From positions 1,909,659-1,973,658 of the forward strand of contig OZ316895.1 in the NCBI GenBank assembly GCA_973895155.1: 64,000 nucleotides of DNA, in the 5' to 3' direction. Both the position numbers and the translations under genes were made by a program. The notes under the pieces were generated by a model, which worked only from the letters and a program-made list of their open reading frames with translations, had not been told where the DNA came from and searched no databases. This DNA comes from Marsupella aquatica. Lineage: Eukaryota > Plantae > Marchantiophyta. Shown here one piece after another: positions 25,401 to 53,417 of the stretch. Positions within the stretch are counted from its first letter, which is position 1. The number at the start of each line of letters is the position of its first letter.

Positions 25401-26861
25401 TAATTATTCATGTGGGTCAATTGACAACAAGTTTTCCTAAGTAATGGTATGACGTCTTGCAGGTTCAAGGTTGTCAAGTTGCCAAGTTACTGAGGAGATT
25501 GGTTTGATATAGTAAGTGATGGTTTGATATAGTAAGTGAAACCGGCTGCAAACAGTTAGGTGACTGTTTTTGTAGGTAGTATTTCAGTCAAAAGTGTAAA
25601 CAATGTTATCTGAGTCAACTGAATGTTCTGAGCAACTCCATCCAAGCTTTTCCATTCCATTTGGGCTTCATAGACACACGGAGTTCCATCGGGGCTTTAG
25701 TTGCCTTTGGTCTCAGTGATTCTTTGTGTGCGATTAATTTGGGTGGACAGCTAATTGTGAGAGACAGTGTAGTTGAATAAATGATAACTCCTTGAATGGT
25801 TGATTGAACACATTGCTTTGAAGCACCTTCCAAAGTGTTGCAATCAATAGGTTTCCAGCTAATTGCACCCCGACTCCGTTTTCTTTCCATGGAAATCCAA
25901 ATTCTAGACATAAATGGTATAGACCCGTTTGCCCTTCCCCCGTCTTGGTCCACCAAAAAAATGGTTGGTGGGCAAAAATTACCCAGTCACTTACCTAAAA
26001 AGCAATCAGGCTAAAGATATTCAGGCTGAAATTTACAAAATTCTGTTTCATCTGCACCACCTACTGGACTATGGGGGAGTGTTTGCTAGGAAATACTTTA
26101 CAATAGTCAAATAGTGTTCTATAATTGAAAGTAAATACTCCATATCCCAGACCTGTGCTTTTTCCTGACCATCTGGAATATGAGATAAGGAGTATTTTCC
26201 CTTTGGAATATTTTCCTGACTGTCAGATCTATTAGATATTTACTCTTAAGCCTAGGGTTATGATTGTAACCATAGTTAGGGATACAATTAGTCTAATAAT
26301 CCATATCCCAGATATTGATATTCTCCCTTATGAAAATACTCCATAAAATGTGGAATGTGCACTCAAATTTTGACAATTGTTTGAATTTGGGGTTGTGAGT
26401 GGTGGCCCTATGGTGATCCGTCAGTAAAATAGTTCATTTTTCCGTGATCGGCAATGGGCCCAAACTACAAGCATGCAACTTGAATCGGCCATAACTTTTG
26501 GCCCCTAGGTCCGTTGGCCGAGAAATATGCGGCCCCATAATCGGGCTCATGTGGGGCCTCTCGGGCCCCTATGGTGATCCGTCGGAAAAATATCTCATTT
26601 TTCCTTGATCGGCAACGGGCCTAATAGAGTTAAATTGGAGCGCGCTTTTCTCAAGCCTTGTCCTTGCTCTTACTAGCCTCCTCTTTGTTAGTCGCTTCCC
26701 TAATGGCCATGATGGTAGCAAGACTAAGAGGGGCTAAACGTTGGAGTTAGGCAACGCCGGAGCAATGATGAGTAGGTGAAAGTTGTATTCGCGACTTTGT
26801 GTTTGAGTTGGACATTGTGTTTGAGTTTTGACCCTAAACTACTCTAGATTGAGTACAAAAC

Positions 26862-26879
26862 CCCTGGGCCCTCACTCTT
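26862..26879 (+). repeat. Left TIR of the giant transposon
   Basis: ccctgggccctcactctt directly after the TSD tacaaaac. Confidence 0.85.
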
Positions 26880-27170
26880 CTTATTAATTTTTCTCCTATA
26901 GAGATTATCCTTGTTTTTTATAAAAACCAAAAATTTTCTCTTATTAAAGTATCTTCAGTGTATTACAAAAGGGAGTTTTGGGCAATAATAATTATCCTTC
27001 ATATATTACAATTTCACTCCACACACCCGGTCCATCCCCCATCGCCCCCAATCCTCCCTTCAAAACTTTTCTGGCTTAGCATAGCTGCCAGTATTAACAT
27101 TTTAATCTATGAAGGAGATATGGATACTGTAAGGATAATACACGTGTACCAATTATAATTTGACACGTAT

Positions 27171-27192
27171 ATCACTATATTCATTAAAACTG
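27171..27192 (+). repeat. Subterminal inverted repeat, left copy (partner at 44272-44293)
   Basis: atcactatattcattaaaactg is the exact reverse complement of cagttttaatgaatatagtgat. Confidence 0.9.
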
Positions 27193-27629
27193 TACTTTTA
27201 AAAGTCCATAAGATGAACCCTAAAGTTTTTTTTTTTCAGGCCAAATTTCTATTAAAGCATTCCCAAAAGCTAATTTTTTTCAGCCCAAATATACACTTTT
27301 GAACGCCCAAAATTTTGTTTTTTTTCACCCAAATGTTTAATAATAACTTAAATCATATATTCTAATTAATTTAAAAATTAGAGTAAATTTAATTTAGTCC
27401 AAAAATCAGAGGCCAATACCACTCAGACCATCTATAAATTAAAAAATATAGATGGTCATAAATCAAGGGTCAAAATGAGATTGACCCACTATATAATTAT
27501 TAAATTATCCAATCCAGTGAGAGAGCCTCACACTAAGCATATCCTAATTATTTACTTTATCCTACATGTTCAAAACATATCCTTTGACATAATATGAATG
27601 TACAATTCAGGGTAGGCACTAGAGCAACC

Positions 27630-28691
27630 CTATCTCCTAATGATCAAGACAAAACTTGTTTGAACAAGAAAGTCTGCTTCCTGATTTATCATAGCGGATA
27701 TCACGGTTGCAAGTATCTCTCGCATGGTGGTTCTTAAACTTATTGGTTTGGTGAGATCCCTAGTTCTGAGAACTTTCCAAATAAAATGTCTTCTATTTTG
27801 TCTATGAGGACCAGAATAGTTGTCTCCAAGTATTACGTTTGCAGTTTCTTCGATCTCATCCGTGGTCCACGTCTCCAGTGGTGGGTAATGCTGCACCTCG
27901 TTCTTTCCGTCCCAAGGAATCTCTTCAGGAGTCACATCCAAGATGGTGCCAAACTCCTTATGGATACAACGACAATCTCCCCACTTCTGTTCCAAAAGAG
28001 CATAGATGGCAGCATGATCCTCCTTGCTTGTTAATAAATTGAAAACAGACCACTTTGGATTGTTGACAGTGATATAATGTAGAACGCAGTAAGCCTTTCT
28101 CAATTTGCAAAGATACGGCCATAATATCTCGGGCAAAAAAGTGTCATTTGAAGCTGTGTGAGTAAATGGATTTGGAAACAATCCATTCACGTCATAATTC
28201 AAAAATGCCTTCAATGGAGAATCATCAATAAGAATTGTATTAGAAGCATCATATTTTTCTGGAAAACGGTCCCAAATGGTTTGCAAATTCTTCAGAAGTA
28301 AATTGGCCTTCCCATCTGTTATATCTGGCCTTTGGATGCAACTATCAAAGGTATCTTCTTGAGTAAAGACAAACTTGAACTTCTGTCGCTCCTCCTCAGT
28401 GAAAATCAACTCCATTAAGTCCATTGTTTTTGGCCTCCTTGCACAGGTCCAAATTGCGACGTCAAAAACCATGAAAGCTGCATATAGAAATTCGTGGAGG
28501 TATGGGCGCTCCACATACATGAAATTAAACCCTCCACGTCTCCCCCAGTGCACACCACGTAAACTTGTCTGATTTCGCCATGATCCTGAGCTTCTGGTCT
28601 TAATGCAATCCCAACAAATCTTGTTAAGGTCAAGAACCAAGAGCTTTCGCCGGATCGGAGAGTGTAGTATTGGAGTAAATTTTGGAAACAT
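27630..28691 (-). CDS. FCP1/SCP (NIF, HAD-superfamily) phosphatase-like domain; probably the last exon of the cargo gene
   Basis: KLLVLDLNK (DxD motif variant), ERPYLHEFL, FDVAIWTCA, LLKNLQTIW, NTILIDDSPLKAFLN. A phase-compatible intron (about 28736-28873) links it to upstream ORFs, but with two in-frame TAA stops. Confidence 0.8.
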   Translation of the reverse strand: MFPKFTPILHSPIRRKLLVLDLNKICWDCIKTRSSGSWRNQTSLRGVHWGRRGGFNFMYVERPYLHEFLYAAFMVFDVAIWTCARRPKTMDLMELIFTEEERQKFKFVFTQEDTFDSCIQRPDITDGKANLLLKNLQTIWDRFPEKYDASNTILIDDSPLKAFLNYDVNGLFPNPFTHTASNDTFLPEILWPYLCKLRKAYCVLHYITVNNPKWSVFNLLTSKEDHAAIYALLEQKWGDCRCIHKEFGTILDVTPEEIPWDGKNEVQHYPPLETWTTDEIEETANVILGDNYSGPHRQNRRHFIWKVLRTRDLTKPISLRTTMREILATVISAMINQEADFLVQTSFVLIIRR

Positions 28692-29879
28692 TAAAATAAG
28701 CCCTTAGTCAATGGGACTCAAAGTTTAAACAATTACTACGGAGGAAAACTCTCAAAATTTGAAATCAAACAAACTTTGTTAAAGCATTTGAAGTAGAGAG
28801 GAACGACCTCGGGGCGACCCTCCTAGAAAAACATTAATTACATTCACTTGCCATTTTTTAGATCCAAAGTATACCTGGGTCAAACCCTTCCTCAACAGCA
28901 ACGCTTTCCGAGGGAATGCCAACAAAATCCTTTGAGGAAGGAGATTCTACGACGGAACTTTGGTCTGTAAAAAAGTATATTATTACAAAGATAAAGCTTA
29001 GATTGTCATTAAAATACCAAGAACCAAAGAAAGGGCTAATAATTTCCAATGCTAAAATGCCCAAATTCATCTATTGTTTGATCACCTAGAACACTCTGTA
29101 TCTCGGAATTGATACCACTGGGAAGTTGCTCTTCAAAGGATGGGGGTGCAAAAACTGGGCTCAGTCTCAAGTTCAGTTTTTTGTAATCTGATTTTGCCAT
29201 TATCTTTGGAGCATCGTCTAGTGATTCTATCATTCCAACCTTTGGTCCATTTCTCCATATAAAATGAGTTGCAGGACGGACTGTTTTCATATATCCAGTC
29301 CTGCCGATCTCGGATCCAGAATTTTGTGAAAATGATAATACTACGGGGCTTCCTGTAGAAGCACTTGTAAAAACCAATTTAGTCTCTGATGAGCAATATA
29401 GAGGAGACAGGGGAGGATTTGAAGCACCAGCCTTCTCTTCTTCATTTGCAGCGGTCTCAGGTACTTAACGATCATCCTCCTTTGCAAGCGCAATGTCTGA
29501 CATTTCTCCCAATTATGCTGCATCAATATTGCCTAGACCATCTGTGCTTGCCTTCCAATGTGCATCCGATGTGGACGATGTAAGATCTAGGTCCGACTGG
29601 TGCATCCAATTCTCTACACCGGCAAAGGGATTTCTTGGTGGGTCGCCCTCAGGTCAACCCACAACATCGGCCAACCCCACACCAAAGTAGGGAATACCTA
29701 CCACTTGTGTTCCACGTTCATCCAAATTTTGGGTGACCCTGTCGTCTGTGTCGTGACCCAATTCTCCTTCCTCAATATCATCTTCGCCCTGGTCTACGCC
29801 TTCTTTGGCGCCAACATGCTCGGAAACCCCATCGCGGGCTCTACCAAATTTGGAACCGCCCATCCGGTCACTCATTATG

Positions 29880-30763
29880 GAAGGAAATTTCTCGCAGAGA
29901 ACCCTTCCATATGCCTGAGTGAAATCATATTCATCCTCAATGTCTCAATACGCAAAGCATTCTCTGAAACACAACAATGGCACCTTCATAACCTGTCCTC
30001 CCGAGAAATAGTCAAGTATAGTCTCCCCTTCAGCCAAAAAAAATTCAATAATACTCTGCAGCATACATTTTGGCTTAGCGTGAATATTCACAAAGCCACC
30101 TCTACTTCCCACCATCTCAAACATGGGAGCCTTTTGTAAGAAATCTCCAATGTGAAATGCCAAAGTTGACTCAGTCTCTGTCTCCTTACTTGTCTTACTC
30201 TTATTCTTATCTCGCTTCTCCGTCTTGTCTTCCACTTGGAAATCAGGGTCGATCGCCGAATTGTAAGAAAATTAGCAATTAAATCCAGGCCTGAACACTT
30301 GCTTCCAATCAAATTTCTCCTCAGTGGTGATTCCTGCAAAGATTATCTCCTCCATACCACAACTGAAAAGTAAGCCCTCTGGAACTGGTGTATCACTCCG
30401 TCGATAGCTCCCGTAGTCAACGTGGATGTCCATTCCCTTTTCATGTTGCAATTTCCTAAGGGCACTCAAAATGTTTGCAGCAAGTGGCCCCGGATGCACA
30501 GTCATGACAACAACAATTGTTGGATTTCTTGGAAGATCCACAATGTATTGCAGTAATGCAATAATTTCAGCATCGGTCCAAACATGTTGTCGGAGCCTAC
30601 TGAAGTCAACAATGGCAAGAGGACACAAAGGCGAAGGCTCTTGTAGCATTTCCGGCACGGTCGTCTTCATCAAATTATCACTAAAAAATGTCAAGAAAGG
30701 CTCCGTGCGAGAACGACCAATCCCACCAAATTCTTTACAATACAACCCATCTAGTCTGACCAT
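29880..30763 (-). pseudogene. Beta-class N4/N6 DNA methyltransferase-like domain, degenerate and split over ORFs 30272-30763 and 29945-30235
   Basis: HAKPKCMLQSIIEFFLAEGETILDYFSGG...FRECFAY resembles the KP..L...I....Gd.VLDpFxGSG...R...E C-terminal block of N6_N4_Mtase. Upstream CPLAIVDFSR sits where motif IV (DLIxxDPPY) is expected, giving the beta-class order. Confidence 0.55.
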
Positions 30764-30769
30764 CAGACT

Positions 30770-31360
30770 TTATGGGAAACTCTCCTTGACCACATTCTTC
30801 TTCAATGAATTGTTGAGGTAAACCTCACCCGCTGCTCTCCTCAATTTTGTCATCTCAAGCTCAGATTTCAAGGAAGGCAACAATATCACCAGAGACTCCC
30901 AAGATGTGCCAACATGAAACTTCTCACGATACTTTTCCACGAAATAGCCAATAATGACTGTTCTCAATTTGGACATTATCTTGATTGTAAGGGCCAAGTC
31001 TCCCATTGCGACAAGCTCTGATTTGTTGGTGATATCCTTCTTCAGCAAGACACGCTCCTCTTCAACGTCCTTCAAGATCTCAATTATCTGTTTGCTACTA
31101 ATCTCTCCTTCAAAGCATCGAAAGGTACCGGGAGTGATCAATTTTGGGGGTCTTGGCCCTCCATACCCACCAGCCCCGTCTTGGAGCTTCCCACTCAACC
31201 ATTTTGCACACATGTTCCGCCATAATTCAAAGAGCTCATCTTCGGCAAAAAGTAACCAATAAATGCTCTTTAGGCTTGACTTCCCCATTGTAACCTTTGC
31301 CAGGGCAAGCCAATCCTGCATATCCAATGGACTTGACATTAGTTTCAGGGTACAATGCAT
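30770..31360 (-). pseudogene. Helical linker exon of the cargo gene between the ParB-like and MTase-like parts
   Basis: 196-aa ORF, co-linear and in frame with 30272-30763 across a single stop. No family recognised. Confidence 0.45.
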
Positions 31361-31649
31361 ATGTTAGAAAATTTATACCTATGTTTGAAACAGGCTAAGC
31401 CGCCTCGCCCCAAGGGCGTGGCGAACCTCTACATCTAACCGCAATTGACTGAAACGGAACTAGGGAATTATTCGTAGAGAGACTAGTCTAGGTTGCCTCG
31501 CCCTCAAGGCAAGGCAAACATTTGCTTTAATCTTCTAACCAAGGAAAACAAGAAAAGGTAACCTCGCCCTTGGGGCGAGGCAAACCTCTACCACTGACAA
31601 TCTTTAAACAAAGTGGATCAAGAATAGTTTGCATTGCTCCAACATGTAC

Positions 31650-32609
31650 CTGATAGTTTTTTCTATCTGTATTCTGATTAGTCCCAATCCCTGGACGCGG
31701 CAGTTTCCCGCACTCCTCAAACTGCCTTCGTGCATGAACAATAGTCTCTAAAAAACAAGACTTAAATTGCATAGTATCATTGACAGCATTCGATAAACTT
31801 GAATGCTCAACCAAAATTTCTTCGGAGTGAGGTCAGATAGGATCCTTGCTTTCCTATACTTTAGTTTGTTGGCAAGATCTATTAGCTTGGCGTCAGTCTC
31901 GGCCCACCCTTGGATCCATTGGGCAGCTCTTGTAGAATGCTGGCCACTGATGGCAAGGAATTGGATCTCATGCTTCTTCACACCAATCAAAAACTCTTTC
32001 CTATCTTTGAGGTGTGTTGTCATAATGAAGCAACTGTTTAGTGCTCTCGCGATACAGAATCAAATCAGCAACTTGTGGTTCCTGTCCAGGGTTTTTCATC
32101 ATAGACTTTGATATCTCCATTGCATGCGAACAATTGAACATTCGATATACAAAAATAGCCGATGGCGGATTAATACTTTTTATAGGAATATCAAAAACTT
32201 TGCGGATGCCAAAAGTATAATACTGCTCAATATTACGCAAAACCTCTTGGCCTTTGAGCACATCATCTTCTTTGGGTCCTTCTGTCGGACACATATCATC
32301 CTCTGGATGCAAGACAAAGTTTGAAGTCGACGCCGATATTGGTTTTGATTTCGCAACCTTTGCCTTCTTTGTCTGTTTTTTTGGGGGGCCCTCATCATCT
32401 TCATTTTTTTTAGCAATCTTCTTACGGCATGAACTCCCAGATTGTTTCTCTTGTTGAACAACTAGCTCTCGAAGCTTTTGTTTCTTCTCTGTCTTTGATT
32501 GCGCACTTCTTTCCACTGTCTTCTTTCTCTCCTTTGCCTTATGCTTTGCTTCTTTTTCTTCATCTCTGAAATCCACGTCCGGCACGCGGCCTCTTGAAAC
32601 TGTGGACAA
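31650..32609 (-). pseudogene. ParB/Sulfiredoxin-like domain preceded by a Lys-rich NLS-like segment; frameshifted
   Basis: FDIPIKSINPP...YR...HAMEISKSMMKNPG.EPQV, then after a frameshift FLAISGQHSTRAA (compare the ParB/Srx iidGxHRxxA motif), ARIL, and LVEHSSLSN. Confidence 0.6.
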
Positions 32610-34080
32610 AAAATGAAACTCTTGTCGATTGGTTGCTCGTATGAAAAATGTGTCTTCTCAATCATCCTTTGAACTATCCAAGTAGACGGAGGGTCCACAC
32701 TGTCCGCATTGTCATGCATGTGCTTCTTTACGTAGAGAAATCCAAACAATAGGTCAACTCCACTTATTTGAGAACGCGTCTTCTCAAACATCTGATCAAT
32801 TGTTACTCAATCTGGGAAGAATCCCATATCAGCTACGCTTATCTCCAATCGAGCCATCCACTCAACATTTAGTAAAGTCGAGTAGAGTTTTATTGGCACC
32901 AGAAGTCTCATCCACTGAGATTTCTTATTGGACTCAACAATAATCATTGCATTGCGGTTGTTGTCTGTGTTCACAAGGACGACTGGACCTAGAGTAACAA
33001 TTGTCTTGCGGTCATTCAATTGACTTGTGAGGCCCTTGAAACAAATCAAGAGACTACCTTCCGCCGACACCCCAACTTCTAGTGCCCATCTAAATCCTAG
33101 AGTATCTTGGTCAGGGAAAACAAAGTCCTTGATATCCTTGTCCATAATATTTAACTCCGGCTTCTCAAGATTTTTTCCTGGTAAGAAACATTGAAAACAA
33201 ATGGTCAGCATCATATTTTTAACATTGACATGTGGAAAACTTTCAAGGTGCCTTGCCCTTGGGGCGAGGCGACAAATAGAAGATTGCAAAATCTTCTTTG
33301 CTCCTAGTGCAATTAGCCCTGCCACCTCATCCAAGCAATCAAACATTATTTAGGAATGCAGACGACATCGCCTCGCCCCAAGGGCGAGGCAACTTCTGGG
33401 AAAGCAAACAACATTTAGGAATGCAGAGGACGAAAGTAGACAACATTTAGGAATGTAGAGGACATCACCTCGCCCCAAGGGAGAGGCAACTTCTGGGAAA
33501 GCAGACAACATTTAGGAATGTAGAGGACATCGCCTCGCCCCAAGGGCGAGGCAACTTCTGGGAATGTAGACAACATTTAGGAATGCAGATAACATCACCT
33601 CGCCCCAAGGGCGAGGCAACTTTTGGAAATGCAGACTATATTTTAGGAATGCAGACGACATCGCCTCGCCCCAAGAGCGAGGCAAAAAATAGAATATAGC
33701 TAAAGATCCTTTATTAATGTAAGATACAAGGTCCAATACGCCTTCGGAGCAACAAGAAATCTAGAATGAAGTAGACGTCGCCTCGACCTTGGGGCGAGGC
33801 GACTGCAAAGGAATATAGAAATTTTCCTAATAAGAAGTTTGAAATCCAAATTAAAGTAAAGTTGCCTCGCCCTTAGGGCGAGGCAAGAAGTTGAAGCAGG
33901 TGGTGCCTTACGTGGAAAAGTTAACTGGGCTTTCTTTGACGCCTCCAATGCATTGTTAACCAATTTTTGGACATCCGGGTCTTCAGGGTCATATTCGTAT
34001 AGAGAGTTATAATTGAAGTTCAATGACTCTTGAGAACTGGCGGAGGTGGTGGAAGCTTCAGAACTGGAGGAAGTAGACAT
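32462..34080 (-). pseudogene. 5' exons of the cargo gene (unknown domains)
   Basis: Co-directional ORF pieces (33700-34236 with internal MSTSSSSEAS, 32807-33346, 32462-32791), separated by repeat-filled probable introns. TATA-like tatagg on the minus strand at about 34386-34391. Confidence 0.4.
33346..33690. repeat. ~65-bp tandem array carrying the hairpin GCCTCGCCC-CAA-GGGCGAGGC
   Basis: Five hairpin copies at about 33370, 33467, 33532, 33597 and 33663 within the unit catttaggaatg(c/t)aga.gacatcgcctcgccccaagggcgaggcaacttctgggaaagcagacaa. Dispersed copies lie at about 31402, 31495, 31562, 33250, 33780 and 33864. Confidence 0.9.
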
Positions 34081-35269
34081 TGTAAGGGGCGAGTGAGATT
34101 TAAGATGATACGTGGCAGCAATGGAGAATGCCACAGGCTGCAAGAGGGCACTAACAGGCAAACAATGATCGAGGGAGCGACCCAAAAGGGAAGGGAGCAA
34201 GGCGAAAATAAAAGCCTTAGAGCGAGGCGGAAACAAAATCCCAAGAGCGAGGCAAAAACAAAAGCCCTAGAGCGAGGCAAGAGGGAGGCAAGGAGTGAGG
34301 AGATGAGAGAGGAGCCTGAAGAGGAGGAAAGAGAAGAGGCAAGAGGGAGGCAAGGAAATGAGGCCTCAAGCGCAAGGCCTGCCTTCCTATACCCCCTGCG
34401 AGCGAGGAGTCCAAGGAGGCAAGGATCCGAGAGGGTACGGAGGCATCAATGCGCGCCAATGATGGAGACCCTCCTCACTGCATGTGATCGTGAGTCACCG
34501 ATGGTGTGACCACTCACGACCACTCGCGACTCACCTACCAATTTTAAACTTCCGAGCTGTCAGCGGTGTGTGCTCGCAACTCACCTATCACTCGTGAGTG
34601 ATTGGCTGACACCCTATCCGATGTCTACTTGTGTGCTGGGTGCGTGCCTCATCCACCCGTGCCCGATCTGTTGGTGTCCACTCGTGTGTTGGGTAATGTG
34701 TGGGCTTTTTGCCTCTCAAACTGAGTATAGACCTCCTGCAATCCATTTTTTGGTTCATTGTCATTTAGACAGTGATTGGTACGATCACTGACTCTCCTCT
34801 GTCCGAGTGCCTTGTTTAGGTCCGCATGGTTGAATGCAAGGTTTAGTAAGGGCACTGGTGAACACTGTGGTGCTAAGAGTTACAATGCTGGCATCCAAGG
34901 TACCCATTTAGCTTGTACAAGGGTGGGCAGAGATATATTGCGGAGCAGGTTAGTGATTTTATTTATTTATCTTAGAAGTACTAGCTCAACTACATCTAAT
35001 TCAATACCTTTAAGCCAAACCTAGATTAAGATTTACACATTAGGTTCTAGATCATATATTTTACTCATTTCTAGACCTTTATCCACAGTCTAGCATGTGT
35101 AAAACTTACTGTACCCCTTTATGTGATTACTAACATAGTTTCTAGAAGTGAGTCGGAATTATTTCGTGCCGACCTGACTATGTCATCTTAACTAGCATTT
35201 TAAACTGGTATATAAAAGCATAAGCAAGATAGTTTCACAAATAGTTTTGACATAATTTCAACTTAATAG

Positions 35270-35590
35270 TTGGAGTAGGGTTGAAATAATTCCGACCCAA
35301 CTTGTCAATGTTTAGTCAATTAAATCATTTTAAGACATATTGTTGGAGGAGGGTCGAAATAATTCCGACCCGACTTATAAATGTTTAGTCAATTCAATCA
35401 TTTTAAGACATATTGTTGGAGGAGGGTCGAAATAATTCCGACCCAACTTGTAAATGTTTAGTCAATTCAATCATTTTAAGACATATTGTTGGAGGAGGGT
35501 CGAAATAATTCCGACCCGACTTGTAAATGTTTAGTCAATTAAATCATTTTAATGTTGGAGGAGGGTCGAAATAATTCCGACCCGACTTGA
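35270..35590. repeat. 73-bp tandem array (about 4.5 units) with the palindrome GGGTCGAAATAATTCCGACCC
   Basis: Palindrome starts at about 35278, 35351, 35424, 35497 and 35563. The intervening sequences are near-identical. Confidence 0.9.
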
Positions 35591-35715
35591 ATGTATTTAG
35601 GGTTTTGAGTGATTTTACAATATTTTTTGGAGGAGAGTCCAGATTTTGAAACATGGTTGTAACATGGGGAACTTAACAATTTCTAACTTTATTTGAATAT
35701 AGATAGTCCGCTATC

Positions 35716-36880
35716 ATGATCAATTTTACACGAGGGGATGAAGTGTCATTGGTGATCGATGGATTTGAAACGGGAATTGGGATAGTTCAAAAGGTTGACC
35801 CCCAAGATACTATACAGAACATTTGTCTAGGGGATAATCGAATTGAGGTATTGATCAAAAAGTGTTTTGATGGATCGCGTCAACTTCCATTTCCTTCGCC
35901 CAAATTTTCTACATTGGCTGAGGCAATTGACTCCTGCGTGATTTGGGATTGTGCATTGGCATACTTTAGGTCATCAACTCAGCGCCGAAGAATCAATGTC
36001 GATGATTTCTCTTTGGCTGGAGATGCTGGAAATGATAAATCCAAAATTGATGCAAGGGTTGAAGAGGACGTGTTCAAGGAAGGAGATGAAGTTCAGATGT
36101 TCATTTTTGATCAGTTGGTTGCAAATGGAGTCGTTTTCAAGACAAATCCGATGGATATTTGTCATACTGAAACACTCGGGGTTGGTCGCATCAGTATAAG
36201 AATATCTGATATTGTTAAGGGAAATCAAAAATTGCCATACTCGCACCCTGGAGGTGATACAATAGAAGAGGCCTTGCATACCTGGGTTATCTGGGATGTT
36301 GCGCATGTTTCTAGAAAGGGCACTCTACGAGATTTTGGCGTGTTTGGTAGTTCAAATATTTTCAATGATCTTCCATTAAAAGATTTTACACTACGTTCCA
36401 ACTGGATGGCGGAGGAGGTTGATTTGTATGACGCTTCTCGTTGTCGGAAGGTTGCAACAGGTGTTATCACGGTCCCATTTGAAACAGGTGCCGTTGACGA
36501 ACTAACTTCTTGGTGCAGATCATGTTGGTGTTGTTGTTGTGAATATCAATGAACCCGGATTATTTCCAAATATCCGTGTTGGTACCCCTGGCTTGGTGAG
36601 GTGGGAAATCAAATCCCTTCTATTGATTTCGTCTCAAAGGTTTCTTGGGGATATCCTTGAGGAAGTTTCAGAGAAGTGGATGGAGTCGGGTCGAACTAAG
36701 GGCGATCCGGATTCGGATGGTGATGGTAAACCTACAAAAAGACCATACAATTTCATTAGGAGGACAAAAGTTGATCTTGAGGAGAAGAAGAAAAGGCATT
36801 TGGAGTCGAGGGCACTTTTGAAAATTAACGAGGAGTCCATTGATTCCATCCAAAGAGAAGGTTGTTGCAAGCTGAAGTGA
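35716..36880 (+). pseudogene. Three tandem Tnp1/En-Spm-like (CACTA TnpA-type) domains followed by a transposase N-terminal Cys motif; probable 5' half of transposase B
   Basis: Repeated pattern GDEV.....(VA.)G.V.K.dP.D......LG..RI.(V/I).I.....G...LP(F/Y)P.P...T(L/I).EA.....VIWD, with the third copy frameshifted. The ORF ends SIQREGCCKLK*, parallel to EIHKYSCCDNYC in transposase A. Confidence 0.6.
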
Positions 36881-37654
36881 ACACGATTTCGGACCGAACG
36901 AGAACTATTTCCTCTAAACGAGAAGTTTATTTTCATTTTCCGCCGAATCTCACGAAATCGGCAGTTTTTTTCATCAAAAACACGTTTTTGGGGAAATAAT
37001 GTAATTCGTATTGGAGTTCGGATTGAAACAGCAAATTTAATAATGATCAAAACCAATGAAATTCATGCTAACAAACATTCGTATTATCAAGGAACAATTA
37101 GATCCGAAAAAATTTCTCCTCAACCTCATATTCACGCTCTCCGAAGATATCTGAAAGGTCTTATCTATAAATCCATATCCACATTTCGAGCCAAGTGCGA
37201 TAACTGTATCAGACTCCGGATTTGAGCCATGAAAGCTCCGACCCAATCTCAGTTTTCTCAGTTTTTGGATATTTACCAAAAATATTTTACATCACAGTCG
37301 ATAAGAATTACTACACGGTTCGTCAAATTTACCTTGCAGTTACCTCCGCAATTGACCCTCCGCAAGTGACCATAGTCAACATGCCATTCTTTCAATAGCA
37401 ATGCGCAGTCCGATAAAATTATCGCGAAAACTACGGGCAAAAAAAATACTAGTCGACAATACTAAGATCCTTCGGTTCATCGGTTAAATTTCAAAATTCC
37501 TATCCATATGAAGAGAACTCTTCGCAATACCAACATCAGATAAATTTATCGCTTCAATTTCAAAACTATATAATTTACCACGATGCATGTGTGAGAATGA
37601 AATTGGAAATCCAAGAAATATACCCTTTTCTGCTATTTTGTCGTTTAGGGTGAC

Positions 37655-37705
37655 AGCCAATCAAAAGTGGACACGTGGGCCAACCCCTCAACAGACACTA
37701 TAAAA
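37655..37705 (+). promoter_or_regulatory. Candidate Pol II promoter of transposase A (CCAAT, G-box CACGTG, TATAAAA)
   Basis: ccaat at about 37658, cacgtg at 37672-37677 and tataaaa at 37699-37705, about 150 bp upstream of the ATG at 37850. Confidence 0.45.
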
Positions 37706-37849
37706 GGGCCACCATCGATAAGTTTTTGGCGTCATTATCGAGAGTAGAGTTTTGGGAGTTGTGTTTTTGGAGCAACATTCTGTCCGTTGAGCCTTTCGTT
37801 TTCCCTGATTGCGGGAGGAATGCAAAGCCCCATAGTGTCTCGGATAGCC

Positions 37850-40800
37850 ATGTCTCAATCAGACACAGATTCACCTTCCAGTTTAGTTGAATCCTCTCCT
37901 AATCTTGTCGCTCGCTGTTTGCCAAGTCACATACTTAAAGCTCTACCTCTCTCACAGCAAATAGTGCCCGAAATCTCTGACTCAGATTCTGATGCAAGTT
38001 CTGGTCCTGAGCCCAGTGCTTACTATGTGTCGCCTAGTAAACCTGAGAAGCGTCGTCTCTTGAGCGTTCCATCGCCAAGAAATGAGAAACTTTCAATCCC
38101 AGGTTTAGGTCCGAGACGTCGCTTCAGGCCATCCATCCCGGGTTATGGAGAGGGTATCGGATGACCGATACGCGTATCGCAGTCGGCATTCAAGTCGCCA
38201 CATTCAACACAAGTTCAACGACGGATCTTTCAGTCTTTGGGTGAGGATCGGGACACATAAATACAAAGACCGATACGGCGATCGGTCTTTGCATTGCCTG
38301 GACTTGATGTGCGAGCAAGCGAGAGAATCGGACTGCAAAGTCCAGACTCGGCCCTTTCTCGAATGGTCCGTGGGAATCGTGGTGAACAAGTACTCAATTT
38401 TCCAGCAGCTCGCGAAGTCGTTGGGACTGCACGTGCGAATCCAGAATCTCCAAGTTCTCAAGGGCGGACTGTCATTGGTTCCAGGCTCCAAGTATCGAGG
38501 AGAGGTCTTAGTGGCGTTCGGGTTATGTATAGAGAGCCACGGAGTCCAATTGTGTTTTCAAATGAGTTGAGTGCATCAGAGGACGAAGATGAGGAAGGAG
38601 ATAGAGAATCCGATATAATAGCACAAGTTGTGTCTGAATGTTTAGGAAGAGCTGTCGAAGAGAATAGTTATAGTCGTCTATTCAGTGCCCCTCTAAATGC
38701 GTCAAGGAGATCTATAGCGGATGGTAGCTCAGCAGAGAGTGATGCATCTATTCGCGAGGCATCTGAAGGACCCGAAAATGCCAATGTTATGAACGGATTT
38801 CAGGCTGTAGAGAAGTCAAATGAACCTAGTAAAAAAGATAGGGACCGAATTACTAGGAAAGACAATGTGATAAATGACAAATTGAATAGAAACAAAATGA
38901 GAGAAATTCATAAGTATTCGTGTTGTGATAATTACTGTCTGAGGAATTTGGGTCTGCTAGCTGTGACGAAACAACGCACTTAATACTATGGGCTATCCTA
39001 CCCAGAGAAGAACGTCCTTCTAAGAGGATGTGTGAAGGGTGGGCATGCTGGTGCAAGTGGTTACTCAGTTAGCGGTAGATCCTTTTGTCGGAGTGGTTTT
39101 AAGAAATTATTTTTACTAGGAAATAATCGTCTCCAAAAAATCTCGCAGAACATGTTTTCTCGGATACAGATCGGTACAGTTTATCGAGAAAAATCACCCG
39201 CACATCTTGGTCTCGTCCAATGGCTGGATGATTTTTTTTCCACAAATGTCGAGAGTCTCCCCAACAAGGATATCTTTCATTTACCTGACAATTGGACAAA
39301 AACATAAGTTTTTGATGCCTTCCAGTCCGAAACTCTAATGCGCCAAGAACAAGGCATGACATATTCGTGGTTTGTTTGCATTTGGAACAAGGAGTTTCCT
39401 CGCGTGCGCATCCCCAAAAGGAGTCGTTTCTCTACCTGCGCCCCGTGTACTGAATTCAAAGCACTCCGTGACAAGGCAACACTCGAAGCAGAAAAGAGTA
39501 AGTTTCTAAACCTGTGTGTTACTCCCGATAATTTTATCGGGTTGAGTATTCATGTGCTTCTTCTTTGGCCATGTGAGTGAATATATCGTTTGAACAGTTT
39601 GAATACTGAACCTGATAAATTTATCGCTGTCACAGTTTTTCATTACGGTCTTGTGTTTGAATACTGAACCCAATAAATTTATCATTGTAAGGGTTTATCA
39701 TTACGGTCTCGTGTTTGAATACTGAACCCGATAAATTTATCGCTGTCAGGGTTCAACATTGCGGTTATCATGTTTTGTCCTAAACATTTTTATTATTGTA
39801 GGAAAATTCTAAACATTGCTAAATGAGCATCGGAAGGCACAAGCAGTCGAGAGGGAGAAGTTAGCAAAGCACCGGAGCAAATGTTACAAGAGTCTGGAGA
39901 AATATTTGGGCATCTGTATTGATGGAATGGATCAAAAGAAGACAGAGTTACCTCATTTCATTCGGTGTCCGAAGAATATGGATGAAAAGTATTTCATCCC
40001 CGTACACATAGTGGGTTGTTTGATCTTCAACAAACAATTAAGTTCAAATGTTTTTTTGAACTATCCAAATATTCACAATGATAGCAACCTGACCATCCAC
40101 GTTATCCAGCATATTCTGAATACCTGGGAAGGTCTGCTCCCTTCAGTGCTTTACCTCCAGCTTGATAACACAGCTCGGGAAAACAAGAATAAATATCTTA
40201 TGGCATATTTGAATATGTTGGTGGAGATAGGTGTTTTCCAGAAAATGAAGGTTGGTTTTCTATTGGTGGGGCACACCCATGATCAAATTGATCAAATGTT
40301 TAGCAAGTTTTCTTCAAAATTGAACAAGCGAAAAGCTTTCCGGTTGGACACTCTTTCAGCAATCATAGAGGAATCCTACAATCCTATGGCAAAGATATTT
40401 TTCGTCGACGAGGTTGCCGATTTCAAGAAATTTGTGTCAGACAAGGATCAAGCAAATGACAAGGATATGGATGGTTAGGTTCTACGTACTCTCCATGGCA
40501 TAAGTGCTCAAAAACAATTTTGGATTACTAGAGTACTCAAAGATGGAAGTGCTCGGTCCGTATTCCATGCCAAACATCTTTCAACGACAACCGATTGGGG
40601 GGAGACGGTGGATTTTGTTCGGTACATTCCATCATCTGGAATGTGGGTCGCACCACAAATGGCATTGAAGTCGGCCACGGGAGCGACAGGAGACAATGAA
40701 GAGCAAGAGAATGATGTTGAGGAACAAGATGAGCGGGCGGCTCAAAGTTATTTGTCAACTCTTCAAAAATATCGAAGAGCAATTGAAGATGGATTCAATT

Positions 40801-41405
40801 ACTTTGACGACGAAGATCGTCTATGGTGGGGTCGTTTTTTTTACAAACAAAAAGAAGTGATTCAGCACCACCTAAAACCTGCACAATGGAGTTTTGATTG
40901 GAGTTGGCCTAAGGTAAACGTACAGAGAGAACTTCCGAGTAATCCTACGGAAGCAGCAATGGAACCTAGCTTGGTTGATAAAGTAGCGGGTGTGAGGACA
41001 GTCATGTATTCCGGAAGTCGAAGAAAAGTCACAGAAATTGGAGACTTCAAGGATCTAGAGGTGAATACTAAATTTGCAATGATATGTGTAGCAGCCCATC
41101 AGGATCCCAAGGGAAGACCATTCTGGATGGCAAAAGTGACTGAGATTCTCACAAGAATTAACGACATCTCGGAGCGGATTAAAATCACTTGGTATGCAAT
41201 GGATTCGGAGGAAGAGTCTGCAATTGAAGGCAGATATTATCCGGAGAAAGAGGCTTCGTCTAGCAAAGTACTGGAGGATGAATTGTCCCTAGCAGAAACT
41301 GTCGTTTATGCGTATAACTTTGCATTATTGGCAAATAGTACTCTCCCTATACAAACAAGATGAATCATTCAAAATGCAATGGAGACTGTAGTCGTTGATA
41401 GTTGA
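37850..41405 (+). pseudogene. Transposase A, DUF7869/Sola-like DDD type, with a spliceosomal intron at 39498-39801 and several stops and frameshifts
   Basis: CCDNYC; FCRSGF; HLPD; STCAPCTEFK; ICIDGMDQKK; LYLQLDNTARENKN; GFLLVGHTHDQIDQMFS; C-terminal PFWMAKV...ITWY domain. The GT-AG intron joins the ORFs in frame. Confidence 0.85.
39520..39770. repeat. ~59-bp intronic repeats with the 14-bp palindrome CGATAAATTTATCG
   Basis: tttgaatactgaacc.gataaatttatc occurs three times. Variants lie at about 37410, 37540, 39526 and 41560. Confidence 0.85.
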
Positions 41406-41593
41406 AGCTAGTTGCAGGTTTAAGTTATAATGGTTATCGTTCCCATGAATATGTACAGTGGTTATCGTTCTGGGACTATGTACTCCGCAGCTATAATGAT
41501 ATCTTTTTTTTTTAAATAATTGCAATGACAAACCAGTTAGAGCATACAATGCTAAGTCCGATAAGATTATCGACAACTCCATTCCCCCCCAAG

Positions 41594-43752
41594 ATGGAAT
41601 TAGATGGGTTTGCTAAGGTTACTGAAGTTACTATGTACACCATTTGGAAAAACTCATTTGATAATTTTGACTTTCACAAGGGAAGTGCATTTGCCAAGTG
41701 CACATTTTGCACTGAGTTCAAAGATCAATTGATGCGGGAGAAGAGAAAAAAAGAGCGTGCAGAGATTGAAGAGAAAAGAGCGTGACATCTTTGTGAACAA
41801 ATGTCAAGAAGATATGTTTACTATGCTCATAGGGTTCTTGCAAAGAAGGATCCTCAAAACTATCTTTGCATTATTCACGATAAGATGGATCAAGCCAAGA
41901 CTTGGATCCCCAGGTTGGTCCCCACTCCAAAATCCCTCTCTGGTAGTGGTCAGCCTTTGCCTATTGCTCTTACTGGGATGTTAACCCATGGAAGAGATCC
42001 TGGAGTGTATGCACATTTCAGTTTGACTGGACTTTGGCCTGGAGATGCAGACTTTACCGTGACATCTTTGGCCAAATGCCTCCGAGATTTGGAAGATTAC
42101 ACAGGAGACAAAACTGGAGACCTTCTTGAGGGATTGAATTGGAATGCAACTAGGCCAATATTTCAGTCCCTTCTAGACTTTGAAGCATTTCTGGCCGGTT
42201 ACTTGGAACCCAAAAATGTTTCAATTGTTCAATTTCAAGGCATTGAAGATGGTCAGGAGACTAAAAAGTTAAGCACAGTGGATGTTGGTTCTAAGGATGA
42301 TCCTGAGACTACTAGGGGCTCTTTCAAGCCCTTACCAAGGCACCTAACGTTGCAGATGGACAATTCAGGGAAAGATAACAAAAATCAATATGTGATGGCA
42401 TTTTGCACTGAGCTTGTTAGCAGGGGGTGTTTGAAACTGTGCAAATGTCATTCCTCATGGTTGGCCACACCCATGAAGACGTGGATGCATTATTTTCTCA
42501 AGTATCCAAACAGGTCAGATACAAAAAGGTTGCTACCCTCTTGGGGTTGATGGCTGAGATTTGGGAGTGTGAAAGCATTCATCCTGTACCATGATTGATT
42601 CAAGAGGTTGCATCTTACAAGGAGTATTTGAAAACTTTCCAGGTGAAAGAGATAGAAGGTCACTCAAAACCAGTGGCATTTCTTTTCTCCATGAGGGATA
42701 ATGTGCCAATGTATCAATATAAAGCACATGTCAAGCAACCTTGGCTTCTGGCAATGGGGAGGTCCATTTGGAGAACTAATCCCATCACAAATGCGCTCAT
42801 TTTACCGGAAGGCCAACCATTTGCAAAACCTATATCTGGGGATGTACAAAAGAAGGCTGGAGAAATCATCCCATTCCTTAATCGCTATATTGATTTCTTG
42901 AAGAAAAGTTGTAAGGATGAGACCTCTACAGCATATAAAGAGAGATTTCCTCTGGTCAAATATTGGGAGAATCTTGTGCAAGCACCGTCCGAGGAACTTA
43001 CAATAGAAGGGGAGGGGGAAAGACAATTGCCATTGACAACTGATTTTTGGCCAAAGGCTAACCATGGCACAGGTTACAAGATGATTTTGGGGACATCTCA
43101 GCCGTCAAGTGAACCTTCTCAAAATCCAGAGATGATGGACCTTCAAAATGAGTACATGGAAGAGATGGAAGATCAAGCTGCACCCTTTGTTGGTGCACGA
43201 CAAGAGCGAGAACCCGCACGTTGGATTCCTCTACAAGATATTCAAGAAGGTCACTTTGTATTTTTACGTCCAGAGGATGAATGGGAACAGGAAAATGGCA
43301 AAGGGCGTTTCTGGTTGGTTCGAGCTTTGGGTGGTGTGGATCCAAACCGTGAGGTTCCCTCAACAGATTTGCAACATATTGAAGGGTCTTCTTCAACGTC
43401 TGTTGAAAGCATTCCTCTTAGGAATGCTCCTATGTTCCAAGTACAATGGTGGAGGCCTAAACATGGTAAGCATGATGCAAAGGATGATGTTCAATATGAA
43501 CGTTGCTTTCAAACCACTAAGACTTGGGAGCTGGATCCTGGGTTTGACAATGTTACTCAAAGTTGGCAGTTTGCAAATTCTGCAATGTATGGGTTTAAGT
43601 CAGGTGCTAAAGAACAAAATATTATGGATAGAGGTTTGAAAATTCCTAAGAATGTTTTGAAAACTCTCAAAATTTACATGGAAGGTATAATTGATGAGCA
43701 GATTGATAGAACTCGTAGGTTACAAGTCTCCACTCAAATGACTTGTGATTAA
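41594..43752 (+). pseudogene. Transposase B catalytic and C-terminal part, DUF7869/Sola-like, disrupted
   Basis: FAKCTFCTEFK; IIHDKMDQAK; LTLQMDNSGKDNKNQYV; frameshifted FLMVGHTHEDVDALFS; C-terminal RFWLVRA...VQWWRP domain. Confidence 0.85.
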
Positions 43753-44504
43753 GAGGGTCGAGTTGATTTCCATGCGTTTGTCTAAAGTGAGAGAACAAGA
43801 CAATCAAATTAATACTCTATGATCTCTCAAAGTTATTGAATGGACTTTCTTATAATTATTATTTTATTTGTCTTAGTATATTTTAATTCTAGAAAATGAT
43901 GTCATTTCATTCCTTCTAGTAGGTTGGATATCATCCTAGTTAACTTTGTCTAGACAGTATAGTCATTCCATTGTATTGGTGCTTAGTTAGATATCTTACT
44001 CAAGCTAAATGTTTTGAATATAGATGCTATCCAAGCTTATATGTTATTACTAGATTCTATCTATTTTCCAACCAAATGAACACTTTTATCACCCAAATGT
44101 TTTCTAATATCATCCAATTTAATATTTTACTTTCCCAAAATTTCATTTTTTTGTCCCCAAATTTACATTTAATGATGCTTGAATTTTCATTTTTCATCTT
44201 CCAAATTTACAATTTTCATGCCTAAAACTATGTTTTTAAATCGCCAAATTTCCCTATATCCTTTATAATTTCAGTTTTAATGAATATAGTGATGTATACC
44301 AATAATATGATGCCGCATGTTGCTACCTATTGATTTACCCTTCCGCAAAAGTAAGAAGGATGTCATTTCAAGGGATCTTGCAAAATTACAAAGTGGTTTC
44401 GGTATATATACGGAGGTTGCGGAATTGTAAGCGAATTATAAAAATTACCGCCGAAGGGATAAAAATGACCCTTGAACGGTTCTCACATCCTCCCCGTATC
44501 AGAA

Positions 44505-44522
44505 AGGAGTGGGGGCCCAGGG
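44505..44522 (-). repeat. Right TIR of the giant transposon
   Basis: aggagtgggggcccaggg directly before the TSD tacaaaac. Confidence 0.85.
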
Positions 44523-46895
44523 TACAAAACGTAAAAATTAGTGAATCAGATGACAATGTCAATATTCAAACACAAACTAAGCCAATATTTCTAGCAAAAT
44601 GATGATCTTCAAGTACAAAAAATGAAAACATATAGTCAAAAGTTGAGTGCAATGCCCTGGGCGCACTATTTAAATAAAGTGCCCCATGGCCCACTATTCA
44701 AATACAATGCTAAGGCCTTGTTTTTTGGGGAAAGGTAGTACTTTTGTTAGTAAGAGTCATGATTGTTAGTCTTGCATGGTTGATGTTCTGCCAAATGCTT
44801 CTTTGTGGAATCATGTTTTATGTGTTAGGCATTTAGTACTCTTTGGTCTAGAGTTATGACTGTTACCATAGTTAGGGCTAACCTTAGTTGCAAATTTGGT
44901 TATGTAAGCCCTATTGCATACTACATCTCAAGCGGGTGTTTGTTTGGATCGGAATAACTCAGGTTCATTGTTACGGAGCCAATTGAGAGATAGGGAGATC
45001 TTATATTATGGAGACTTGGTATGGCCAATGGGCATAGAGTGTAGTAAAGCTTGTGTGTTTTCATGGAAACAGTCTAAGTGAACCATGTATTTGTTTGTAT
45101 CGATTACTTGTGTTTTGGATGATCATGGGCTTGCCATAGTGACTGTAGTCTTTGCTCAACAAAATATTCCTAAATTTAAGGATGATGGTTATATTCTGGC
45201 TAATGGGACTTGTGATTTGGTGGGAACTAGCTAATGAAACATAAAAATAACAAATCTTGGCCAAAAGTGGCAAACTATTTTTTGGGGAGGTGTAATTTGG
45301 AGAGTTTTCACCACTGTCATACACAAAATAATTTACTGGAAAAAGGGGTTGTAATAGTGGAGTTGTCCATGAACAGTCAACCTGTTATTAATGGAAAGAA
45401 TCCAGAACTGCGGTGACGCTGAAGTGCAGTGAGAATCTGCTGTCGTAAGTTAGCAGACTACCCTCCAATAAGCTTTGAATATTATTGCGGAATCGAGATT
45501 CTGTGGCTCTCCACTGCTCAGTGCTCACCACCTACCTCAAGGCTGGTGAGAGCATGAGAGGAGCGAATCAGGAAATGCACGATTGATGCAATGTTTCCCT
45601 TCACATGATGACAGAACGAGATTCAGGCGGGCGCTCGAGGTTTGAGCCTTTCTTTCTTGGTCTCGTTCATCATTCTTTGCCGCTCTACTCATGGGACCGG
45701 GAGGCGAGCCTTTTCGATTCCAGGGGCACTGATCGTTTAATCATTCGGCTTTCTCTCGGTTGTTCAGTGTCAACCTGAGGACCTCTCATTCCCGGATTCT
45801 CTACTAATAATAAATCCTTGTTGTGCTCTGAAGCAGTGTTATAGGTGGTCGGTGGGCTTGTGCTACGGTGCCGTCCCTTTTTGTGTCCCTCCCCAGTCCA
45901 CCACTTAACTTCTTCAGGATGACGGCCACGAATGCTCGGATTGAGAGGCATGCGCTTGGAGCAGGGTCAAATAATGAAGCGTGAAGGAGTGCTGCTGACA
46001 AATTCTGCTTGACCTGGAATCGCGGTAGCCGGCAGAGCGTAGGGTAGGGGCTGCTAACGATTCCTTTCCTTTCCCTTGTGGGTCTCAAGGCAGGCAGGAC
46101 TGTACTCTGTCCCCGTGCATGCAGCAAGAATCAATGGCTTAGATGGAGGCAAGGGATTGGAGACCCAAAAACCTCCAATTTTGGCGAATGGACATCCCAC
46201 AATGGATTGGCGATGAAATTCATTCGGTGTTGCATTCTTCCCCCGCGACACAAGCCACTTGCAGTGGCCGGGAGAGCAGGGGAGAGCGCGCAAGCAAGAG
46301 CTGAGTGTGCCCCTCGCACTGTCGTTGAAGCAATGGCCGCAACATGTGCAGTGCTAGGCAGATGCCAAGGTTTGATCTAGTTGACGAAGATTCTACTGGG
46401 CATGAAAAATTGAAGGTCCTTTCCAGTCCTTTTAGTGTTAGGTTTCCCAAGCAATTGGTTCTTGTGTTTCATTGAATGAGAAGATGTTTCATTAGGACTT
46501 TCTTACCTTCTTGCATTGCTTCGGCAACACAGCTCGCGCCAGATTCCAGAACTATGGAGTTTTCATTGTAATTTGGGAAAGTTGTAGCTCGTGGAGCCTT
46601 CTTTAAACTAATTCTACGTGCGTTCAAAACCATTAGCTCGTGGAGGTATATCGTCACAGCGTCGATCCAGCACGACTGAAACTTTGGTGACTTTTGTTGT
46701 AATTCAGGAAAGATGTATCTCGTGGAGTCGAATCGTATTGCACTGAGTTTCCTCTGCGAAACAGGATCTCGTTGAAGCTGCTTTCTGCTCCAGGAGTCGA
46801 TTGAGATGTAAAGTGTCCCTGACGATTCCTTAAGCAGGAGTTGGGACCAGAGGGGTCGGGAGTATTTTACCTCCAATTGCATTTGGGATTCCAGG

Positions 46896-52700: not shown

Positions 52701-53417
52701 CCCGGCGGACTGTCTACTTCTTGGTCCCTGCCCCCAAGTGGGCTGAGCTTTCATGGTGCTCCTGGGCCGCAATGTGTCGAGTGACAGCCGAGGTACGTTA
52801 ATCTAGTCCACGATGTTTCAGCTGGGCTCGAAATGTGAAGGTCTCTTCTCTTCCTTAGTAGTACGCGCGCCCTTCGAGCAGAACATTGCTACATTTTGAC
52901 ACACAGATTACTTTAGTTTTTATACACTCCTTGCATGATTTTGCCACATTGCCTGCGCTCTCAACAATTAAAATCTTGCGGAGTTTCACCGCTTGAATGC
53001 AACGTTCAATTGTCACCGTCGATTCTGCAAGTCTGAAACTTTGTTAACCTGTTTTTTTGTAATCCAGGAAACTTGCGTCCTCGCTTGCATCTCGTGGAGC
53101 CTTCTTCAGAATGCTTAATTCTCAGTGAAATAGGATCTCGGTGAGGCTGTTCTGTGCTTCACGAGTCGATTCAGATATATAAGTAACTATATATCCTCAG
53201 CAATTCAGCGGGGTCAAACCGCTCATTCCAGCTCAACATCGTCAGCGAAACAGTGACTGTGGATGTGGTCGCTTGTTTACAACCCATTCTAGGTGCTCAG
53301 GACCTTACTGAAGTTGGAGGGTTAGGCCCTAACAATTCGACTCCAGGAGAAAGTGAACGCACACACGAGAAATTTGGAGTATTTTGCCTCCCATTTCATT
53401 TGGGATTGCATTTGGAG

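Follow-up and report, generated by a model that had tools for sequence, protein, structure and literature searches.

Sola elements are DNA transposons with a DDD transposase, terminal inverted repeats (TIRs) and a 4-bp target-site duplication (TSD); some exceed 15 kb, and the superfamily is present in Physcomitrella (PMC10741241). The target of insect Sola1 is AWWT (PMC3845634), and that of Ectocarpus Sola1-1 is biased to end in A (PMC12477816). Among the giant members, Sola1-1_Ec32 of Ectocarpus is 21,549 bp long, has a 4-bp TSD, finds its best match in Sola1-1_PPa, and carries opposite the transposase a ParB plus N4/N6 methyltransferase gene whose product is predicted to methylate; the same source tabulates the 8-bp TSDs of hAT and KDZ elements (PMC12477816). 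In the red alga Bostrychia, Plavaka (EnSpm) giants have ParB-like genes beside tandem inverted-repeat arrays (bioRxiv 10.1101/2025.02.11.637652), and ParB-fused adenine methylases are known in chlorophytes and chytrids (PMC4738411). Class definitions were drawn from PMC4455052, PMC5751038, PMC3845634, PMC10294476, PMC6431247, PMC3985635 and bioRxiv 2021.09.26.461848. The stretch considered here, termed the window, comprises 64,000 nucleotides of contig OZ316895.1 of the liverwort Marsupella aquatica, at which a sequence-only reading had described a single 17.7-kb cargo-carrying transposon with CCCTGGG ends, an 8-bp TSD and two Sola-like transposases, possibly of an undescribed lineage.

With good confidence, the locus is to be regarded as a nest, in which a multi-copy transposon of 17,123 bp with 22-bp TIRs and a 4-bp duplication lies inside a 534-bp mini-element with an 8-bp duplication; the giant element likely moves by Sola-type cut-and-paste, and a 4.7-kb insert containing DUF7869 likely disrupted its transposase gene at a later time. 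Three insertions are stacked at the supposed single element (Table 1). When the window was scanned for inverted repeats with flanking duplications, with 60 composition-matched shuffles as control, one 16-bp/8-bp pair and one 22-bp/4-bp pair were obtained (0 and 0 in the 60 shuffles); a looser 16-bp/4-bp criterion gave 4 chance pairs in the shuffles. The outer features are as the sequence-only reading had given them, namely the flanking 8-bp duplication and inverted ends matching at 16 of 18 positions (15/16 over the TIR proper). The exact 22-bp inverted repeat is present as well (27171-27192 and 44272-44293, 22/22); it is not subterminal, as had been assumed, but the true terminus of the 17,123-bp element, whose own GTAT duplication had been overlooked.

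The boundaries were located by mapping contigs of public runs to the locus (X1-X4 of six listed runs, from two coded organisms and two studies), the summed depth of such contigs not being equal to copy number. In each of the four runs, 44293 is the exact end point of the high-depth contigs (depth 349 in X1, 1344 in X2, 1607 in X3 with 0 differences, 552 in X4), and from the bin 44275-44293 to the bin 44294-44312 the summed depth drops 5- to 34-fold (2010 to 205 in X1, 5983 to 1277 in X2, 20840 to 982 in X3, 18156 to 529 in X4); no contig piece spanning 44293/44294 is found among the 32 of 877 pieces listed. An X2 contig of depth 401 connects 27146-27168 to 44297 with one letter between, and since this empty allele has the length expected for it, the target duplication is taken to be 4 bp long. 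X1 contigs over 27990-36818 have a depth of 421-515 as compared to 19 for the unique flanks, which corresponds to ~25 copies, and interior contigs of this run differ from the window copy at 3 to 36 positions per 0.6-1.7 kb. The inner element, thus, represents a young family of many copies (~25 as estimated from the depth of contigs in one run), with an identity of 97-99.5%. An exact search for the 22-bp TIR in metagenome contigs of the Joint Genome Institute (JGI) gave 0 matches. The subterminal repeats of the element are in direct, not inverted, orientation, each end having 6 CCAAA and 0 TTTGG.

The outer mini-element is non-coding and resembles a miniature inverted-repeat transposable element. 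Because three contigs agree up to 44522 and then diverge, its end is placed there and the outer duplication is 8 bp; a 9-bp duplication (GTACAAAAC) was considered and rejected, as other copies end at 44522. In three contigs (X1, X3, X4) the right half is present from 44292 with other letters leftwards. Since contigs show the mini-element without the insert, it is to this element, and not to the giant one, that the CCCTGGG ends and the 8-bp duplication are to be assigned. In X1, X2 and X4 the right junction of the mini-element is seen with 0 differences and at the depth of a single copy; it is, therefore, common to both coded organisms, by which the mini-element is placed before the giant element. 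As to the empty outer site, for which a search had been proposed earlier, the consensus of five X1 contigs with a loose end before 44543 resembles the predicted site. The recipient of the mini-element was an older high-copy host repeat, ~0.85 kb long once its two parts are rejoined; single-copy contigs end at 26455 and restart at 44965-44973. This repeat contains a short inverted repeat (arms 26786-26818 and 44553-44587), and the mini-element landed in the loop between the arms. The order of events would be host repeat, mini-element, giant element and, finally, the segment carrying transposase A, with loss of part of transposase B.

Table 1. Features of the nested locus, in window coordinates
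Feature	Position	Strand	Basis and remarks
Older high-copy host repeat, left part	26456..26853		Single-copy contig stops; ends approximate
8-bp target duplication TACAAAAC, left copy	26854..26861	+	Sequence, pair scan
Mini-element left half, 309 bp, TIR 26862-26877	26862..27170		X2 contig joins left half to 44297
4-bp target duplication GTAT, left copy	27167..27170	+	Sequence, pair scan
Sola-like giant transposon, decayed copy, 17,123 bp	27171..44293		Perfect 22-bp TIRs; 44293 is the end point of multi-copy contigs in four runs
Subterminal short repeats, 44-bp spacing	27222..27342	+	Repeat-family analysis; related copies 44116-44257, 22-bp spacing
NIF/FCP1-like HAD phosphatase gene, 357 codons open	27630..28703	-	PF03031, E 4.8e-17
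Passenger: ParB-like N-terminal part (weak) and beta-class N6/N4 methyltransferase fold, broken	29036..32806	-	Homologs, models; 5' end approximate
21-bp palindrome of the type GCCTCGCCC-nnn-GGGCGAGGC, 11 copies	31402..33884		Repeat analysis, pattern scan
73-bp tandem array, directly upstream of transposase B	35265..35639	+	Repeat analysis
Transposase B, N-terminal part	35707..36880	+	Homologs P0176, P0178, P0179, P0183-P0185 align here and again from 41591
Nested 4.7-kb segment with transposase A and own palindrome	36880..41588	+	Contig joints; ends approximate
Transposase A (DUF7869), broken by stops	38696..41402	+	Pfam, homologs; likely intron ~39515-39800
Transposase B, catalytic and C-terminal part (DUF7869)	41589..43752	+	Pfam, homolog alignment
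4-bp target duplication GTAT, right copy	44294..44297	+	Sequence, pair scan
Mini-element right half, 225 bp, TIR 44507-44522	44298..44522		Contigs of other copies agree as far as 44522
8-bp target duplication TACAAAAC, right copy	44523..44530	+	Sequence, pair scan
Older high-copy host repeat, right part	44531..44968		Contig mapping

Two regions of the giant element match DUF7869 in Pfam (E 1.6e-48 and 5.6e-16), and both contain a DDD triad and the motifs quoted in the sequence-only reading; the acidic triad codons are located at ~39921, 40164 and 40290 in transposase A and at ~41879, 42359 and 42484 in transposase B. While two transposase regions do exist, as had been stated, they are no pair: transposase B is one gene, split by a segment carrying transposase A, which is from a different DUF7869 clade. 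The homologs of transposase B (31 matches, 1100-1330 amino acids) align to 35716-36880 and then to 41591-43734, with ~150 residues unmatched between the two blocks and the A segment in their place. Contig joints skip this segment, leading from 36879 to 41589 (X4, depth 5508) or to 41663 (X1, depth 439). A midpoint-rooted tree was built without Repbase Sola references from 44 non-redundant catalytic cores, for which 102 cores extracted out of 151 proteins, plus the two window pieces, were the source; in it A and B fall into different supported clades (97/93 and 97/94), with Riccia members in each. From its position within the gap of the B homologs, the joints skipping it and its separate clade, transposase A (123 homolog matches) is best read as a nested element or a fragment of one. 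Its segment has a palindrome of its own, CGATAAWWTTATCG, with 7 of the 9 window copies inside the 4.7 kb. Both genes are broken in the window copy, transposase B by stops and a frameshift near 42422, and at several breaks other copies read differently. The named relatives come from liverworts, ferns, Chara and marine invertebrates, a range from which a non-seed land plant would be the likely host. Transposase B starts with a duplicated domain (35707-36500), for which PF26133 is precomputed in homologs and a weak similarity to Transposase_23 of the TNP1/EN/SPM type is seen; the ESM Atlas gave no match for this N-terminal domain.

An RNase H fold is predicted for P0001, a close homolog of transposase A (86% identical over the query), the model of which has a mean predicted local distance difference test score (pLDDT) of 87.6. 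In Foldseek the model matches RNase H, retroviral integrases and IstA, and it aligns with the Mos1 transposase over 160 residues (Z 9.2, root-mean-square deviation 3.3); the conserved D58 is placed at the end of strand 1, D139 after strand 4 and D181 in the helix that comes next, which are the canonical positions. A transposase profile run against Protein Data Bank (PDB) sequences was blank except for one row at E 0.64. At the end of the A-type model stands a beta domain of the BAH/Tudor kind (Z 6.5 to BAH1 of DNMT1), which might be a chromatin reader.

With the DDD triad, the TIRs and a 4-bp TSD (one filled site), the inner element is likely of the Sola type, a label that rests on these features and on known motifs and not on sequence comparison with Repbase Sola. 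An unrelated DUF7869 locus (L038:1828-15577) has A...T termini, TIRs and the 4-bp duplication TTAG; it measures 13,750 bp, contains introns, and lies on a contig filed under a bacterial metagenome-assembled genome but eukaryotic-looking. In a TIR/TSD scan, 31 of the 36 metagenome loci were without a clean element, and in a second scan of 30 loci (16 of 17 from the genome collection and 14 of the metagenome loci, with the first six rows listed for each locus) L038 was the sole clean case and no 8-bp case was found among the rows listed. Transposase searches of viral contigs returned no relatives. A 2.2-kb DUF7869 locus (L007:1-2217) has 110-bp inverted repeats, 93% identical, beginning at the contig end.

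It could be argued that the 17,661-bp unit between the CCCTGGG ends moves whole with 8-bp duplications, either as a new lineage or by virtue of mini-element ends carrying the inner element as cargo. Such movement would be in line with the perfect 8-bp duplication and the 15/16 TIR around the unit and with giant Ectocarpus elements, which stay mobile with fixed nested insertions (PMC12477816), and a few composite copies are possible, with 32 of 877 pieces listed and an X1 depth of 205 in 44294-44312 (~10x single-copy). This is, however, judged very improbable, given that the bulk of the inner copies ends at 44293 in four runs, that the mini-element is found without the insert (the X2 joint and three further contigs), that its right junction is single-copy and common to both coded organisms, and that the inner element is bounded by a perfect TIR and a duplication of its own. 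The 17.7-kb element of the sequence-only reading is to be abandoned, as its features belong to different elements and the multi-copy boundary is 44293, not 44522. The distinct lineage proposed on the 8-bp TSD and the CCC...GGG ends falls with it, these being features of the 534-bp element, whereas the inner element has a canonical 4-bp duplication; nothing at the locus speaks for a Sola lineage with 8-bp duplications. What stands is the view that a plant genome harbours a giant DNA transposon in multiple copies, which carries cargo and has DDD (DUF7869) transposases of a Sola-like kind.

The inner element could also be of the CACTA/EnSpm type (CACTA...TAGTG, 27173-44291, with a 2-bp AT duplication) and merely carry DUF7869 genes; CACTA does occur within the TIR, with AT on both flanks and subterminal repeats, a weak match to Transposase_23 was seen at 35707-36549 (E 0.027), and EnSpm-1 of Ectocarpus has a 2-bp TSD (PMC12477816). 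This assignment is hardly tenable: the Transposase_23 match is below the cut-off (14.8 versus 21 bits) and lies in transposase B's own N-terminal part, Transposase_21 occurs in 0 of 20 scanned ORFs (open reading frames) and no EnSpm-type transposase was found there, the empty allele is 6 bases shorter than a CACTA element would predict, and the high-depth contigs reach 44293, two bases beyond TAGTG, which favours AT termini with a 4-bp duplication. That transposases A and B represent a stable two-gene design of the family and not a nested accident is suggested by their common strand within one TIR pair and their similar depths in X1 (~500 for both regions), and no ends of the A segment were found, the best TIR candidate matching at 18/25 positions without a duplication. 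Yet A lies inside B's reading frame, replacing ~150 codons, the segment-skipping contigs are near B's own depth (439 in X1, 5508 in X4), the A:B depth ratio is reversed between the two coded organisms, and A has its own palindrome motif; a two-gene design is, hence, given very little probability. The like depths and the missing ends of the A segment count against the nest as it is drawn here, and so do several points concerning the giant element. Its 4-bp duplication length derives from one filled site, one empty-allele contig and one distant relative, and the short side of that contig has 23 letters with one substitution, in a single run. Fine-scale contig mapping covers the right inner junction rather than the left, and three diverged contigs of single-copy depth end at 44290, not 44293. 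A boundary two bases further in (CACTA...TAGTG, flanks ATAT/ATGT) is possible, but needs a 4-bp deletion in the empty allele. Finally, GTAT does not fit the AWWT of insect Sola1; the target TTAG of L038 is also off, while the alternative register ATAT/ATGT nearly fits.

Beside the transposase genes, the giant element carries passengers. The NIF phosphatase-like ORF has DLN, not DLD, as its first motif. The other passenger gene comprises ~1250 codons with a likely intron at ~31322-31630 and belongs to a family of 110 clusters at 50% identity, one member of which is named from the liverwort Calypogeia. PF01555 (N6_N4_Mtase) is found in 4/4 passenger homologs at E 1e-5 to 8e-5, below the cut-off; the sequence matches M.RsrI at E 0.004, and residues 199-477 of the predicted model match M.MboIIA, M.RsrI and CcrM (Foldseek E 9e-7; Z 13.1). 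By sequence and model, the passenger would possess the N4/N6 amino-methyltransferase domain typical of algal accessory proteins. Motifs were compared in proteins of at least 150 amino acids among 113. The S-adenosylmethionine (SAM)-binding motif DFFSGG is exact in 20/28 rows; the presumed catalytic motif IV, (D/S/N)PP(Y/F/W), is found in 0 of 30 aligned rows, most of which read DF(S/A/T/G)R at the inferred position. The passenger is likely to be a methyltransferase fold that is inactive as an enzyme. A relative, P0295, fuses a methyltransferase-like domain to a NIF domain, from which it follows that NIF and methyltransferase-like passengers travel together in the family. At the N-terminus a motif SGQHS..A is present, which we take to resemble a ParB motif. 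This reading of the passenger is weakened by a mean pLDDT of 46.7 for the model, by the identity of motif IV being derived from position, and by the ParB-like part itself, a weak lead for which neither a Pfam match nor a PDB sequence match was obtained and which rests on an ESM Atlas row (0.90) where 32% of the members carry ParB_N. A profile of 45 passenger-family proteins, run against 1969 ORFs from 53 loci with L038 among them, gave no match, and in viral contigs the passenger alignment met only 9 loci, with weak matches over the SAM-binding stretch.

The 21-bp palindrome is arrayed around this gene, with 3 copies in its likely intron, 8 upstream of it and none elsewhere in the window. Distant DUF7869 loci (L027, L039, L041, L044, L052) have each their own short palindrome arrayed on both sides of the transposase, which suggests that palindrome arrays are a general trait of the DUF7869 group. 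Between the palindrome array and the 73-bp array, overlapping short ORFs are found on both strands (33700-34509); they have no match in Pfam and may represent a small third passenger or a first exon.

The mechanism envisaged builds on nesting, TIRs, duplications, a mini-element allele without insert, an acidic triad and copies in tens or more, as observed. Intact sibling copies would make transposase B, which would bind the TIRs and the subterminal repeats, excise the element and reinsert it with a 4-base stagger; the window copy itself would no longer be able to transpose on its own. As to the predicted function of the passenger, the favoured, if tentative, suggestion is that it does not methylate but acts as a self-recognising DNA-binding protein on the palindrome array of its element. 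The palindromes would be recognised by its ParB-like part, and the passenger would regulate or shield the element without methylation. Going further, it may be speculated, with considerable doubt, that a self-recognition module is conserved in the giant Sola-like transposons of non-seed land plants, in which a ParB-like clamp is fused to a catalytically dead SAM-binding methyltransferase fold and joined by a partner resembling phosphatases of the RNA polymerase C-terminal domain; loading on the palindrome arrays of the element, this module would shield or regulate the element against host silencing. It would be of bacterial origin and correspond to the anti-silencing proteins, likewise sequence-specific, that transposons of flowering plants possess.

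Outside the nest, the window contains two tandem paralogous alpha/beta-hydrolase-like host genes (46812-47996 and 53187-54500; 81% DNA identity) with intact long ORFs.

The apparent 8-bp Sola lineage is an artefact of nesting, and the same trap awaits any TSD call from a single locus. The algal design of a giant Sola element with ParB and methylase would be extended to land plants. A methylase-like domain is kept across 110 clusters, with the presumed catalytic motif absent in 30/30 alignable sequences, and the family offers a concrete system for asking whether such passengers bind to the element that carries them instead of methylating it.

In comparison with known systems, the outer element shares the 8-bp TSD with hAT/KDZ-type non-autonomous elements; it is short and non-coding with short TIRs, and its CCCTG terminus is unlike the hAT/KDZ termini among the rows listed in the available part of the Ectocarpus table. 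The inner element is like the Sola superfamily in its DDD transposase, TIRs and 4-bp TSD, with the target GTAT instead of AWWT. It cannot be called undescribed in type, as had been proposed, for Ectocarpus has already yielded giant Sola elements whose passenger combines ParB with a methyltransferase and whose TSD is 4 bp long (PMC12477816); literature searches, with Repbase Reports and subscription journals outside reach, retrieved no land-plant description of this design, and the term DUF7869 was not found in the literature searched. Bostrychia Plavaka is similar in size (17-19 kb), in its accessory ParB-like and N6-methylase-like genes and in the proposed self-binding; it differs in belonging to another transposase superfamily and in that its ParB and its methylase are encoded by separate genes, the former fused to a 2-oxoglutarate oxygenase and the latter to a SET domain. 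Sola1-1_Ec32 and the inner element are alike in layout: both are of giant size (21.5 versus 17.1 kb), have a 4-bp TSD and begin with A at their termini, and in both a gene with a methyltransferase domain, preceded in the inner element by a weakly supported ParB-like part, runs opposite to the transposase; nested insertions are common in giants of the Sola1-1_Ec32 type. The inner element differs in its land-plant host, in a perfect 22-bp TIR as opposed to an imperfect one of 282 bp, in the extra NIF phosphatase-like gene, and in a methyltransferase family without a PPY-type motif. The inner element is, in summary, likely a land-plant member of the known algal giant Sola design, with a conserved pseudo-methyltransferase and a NIF partner.

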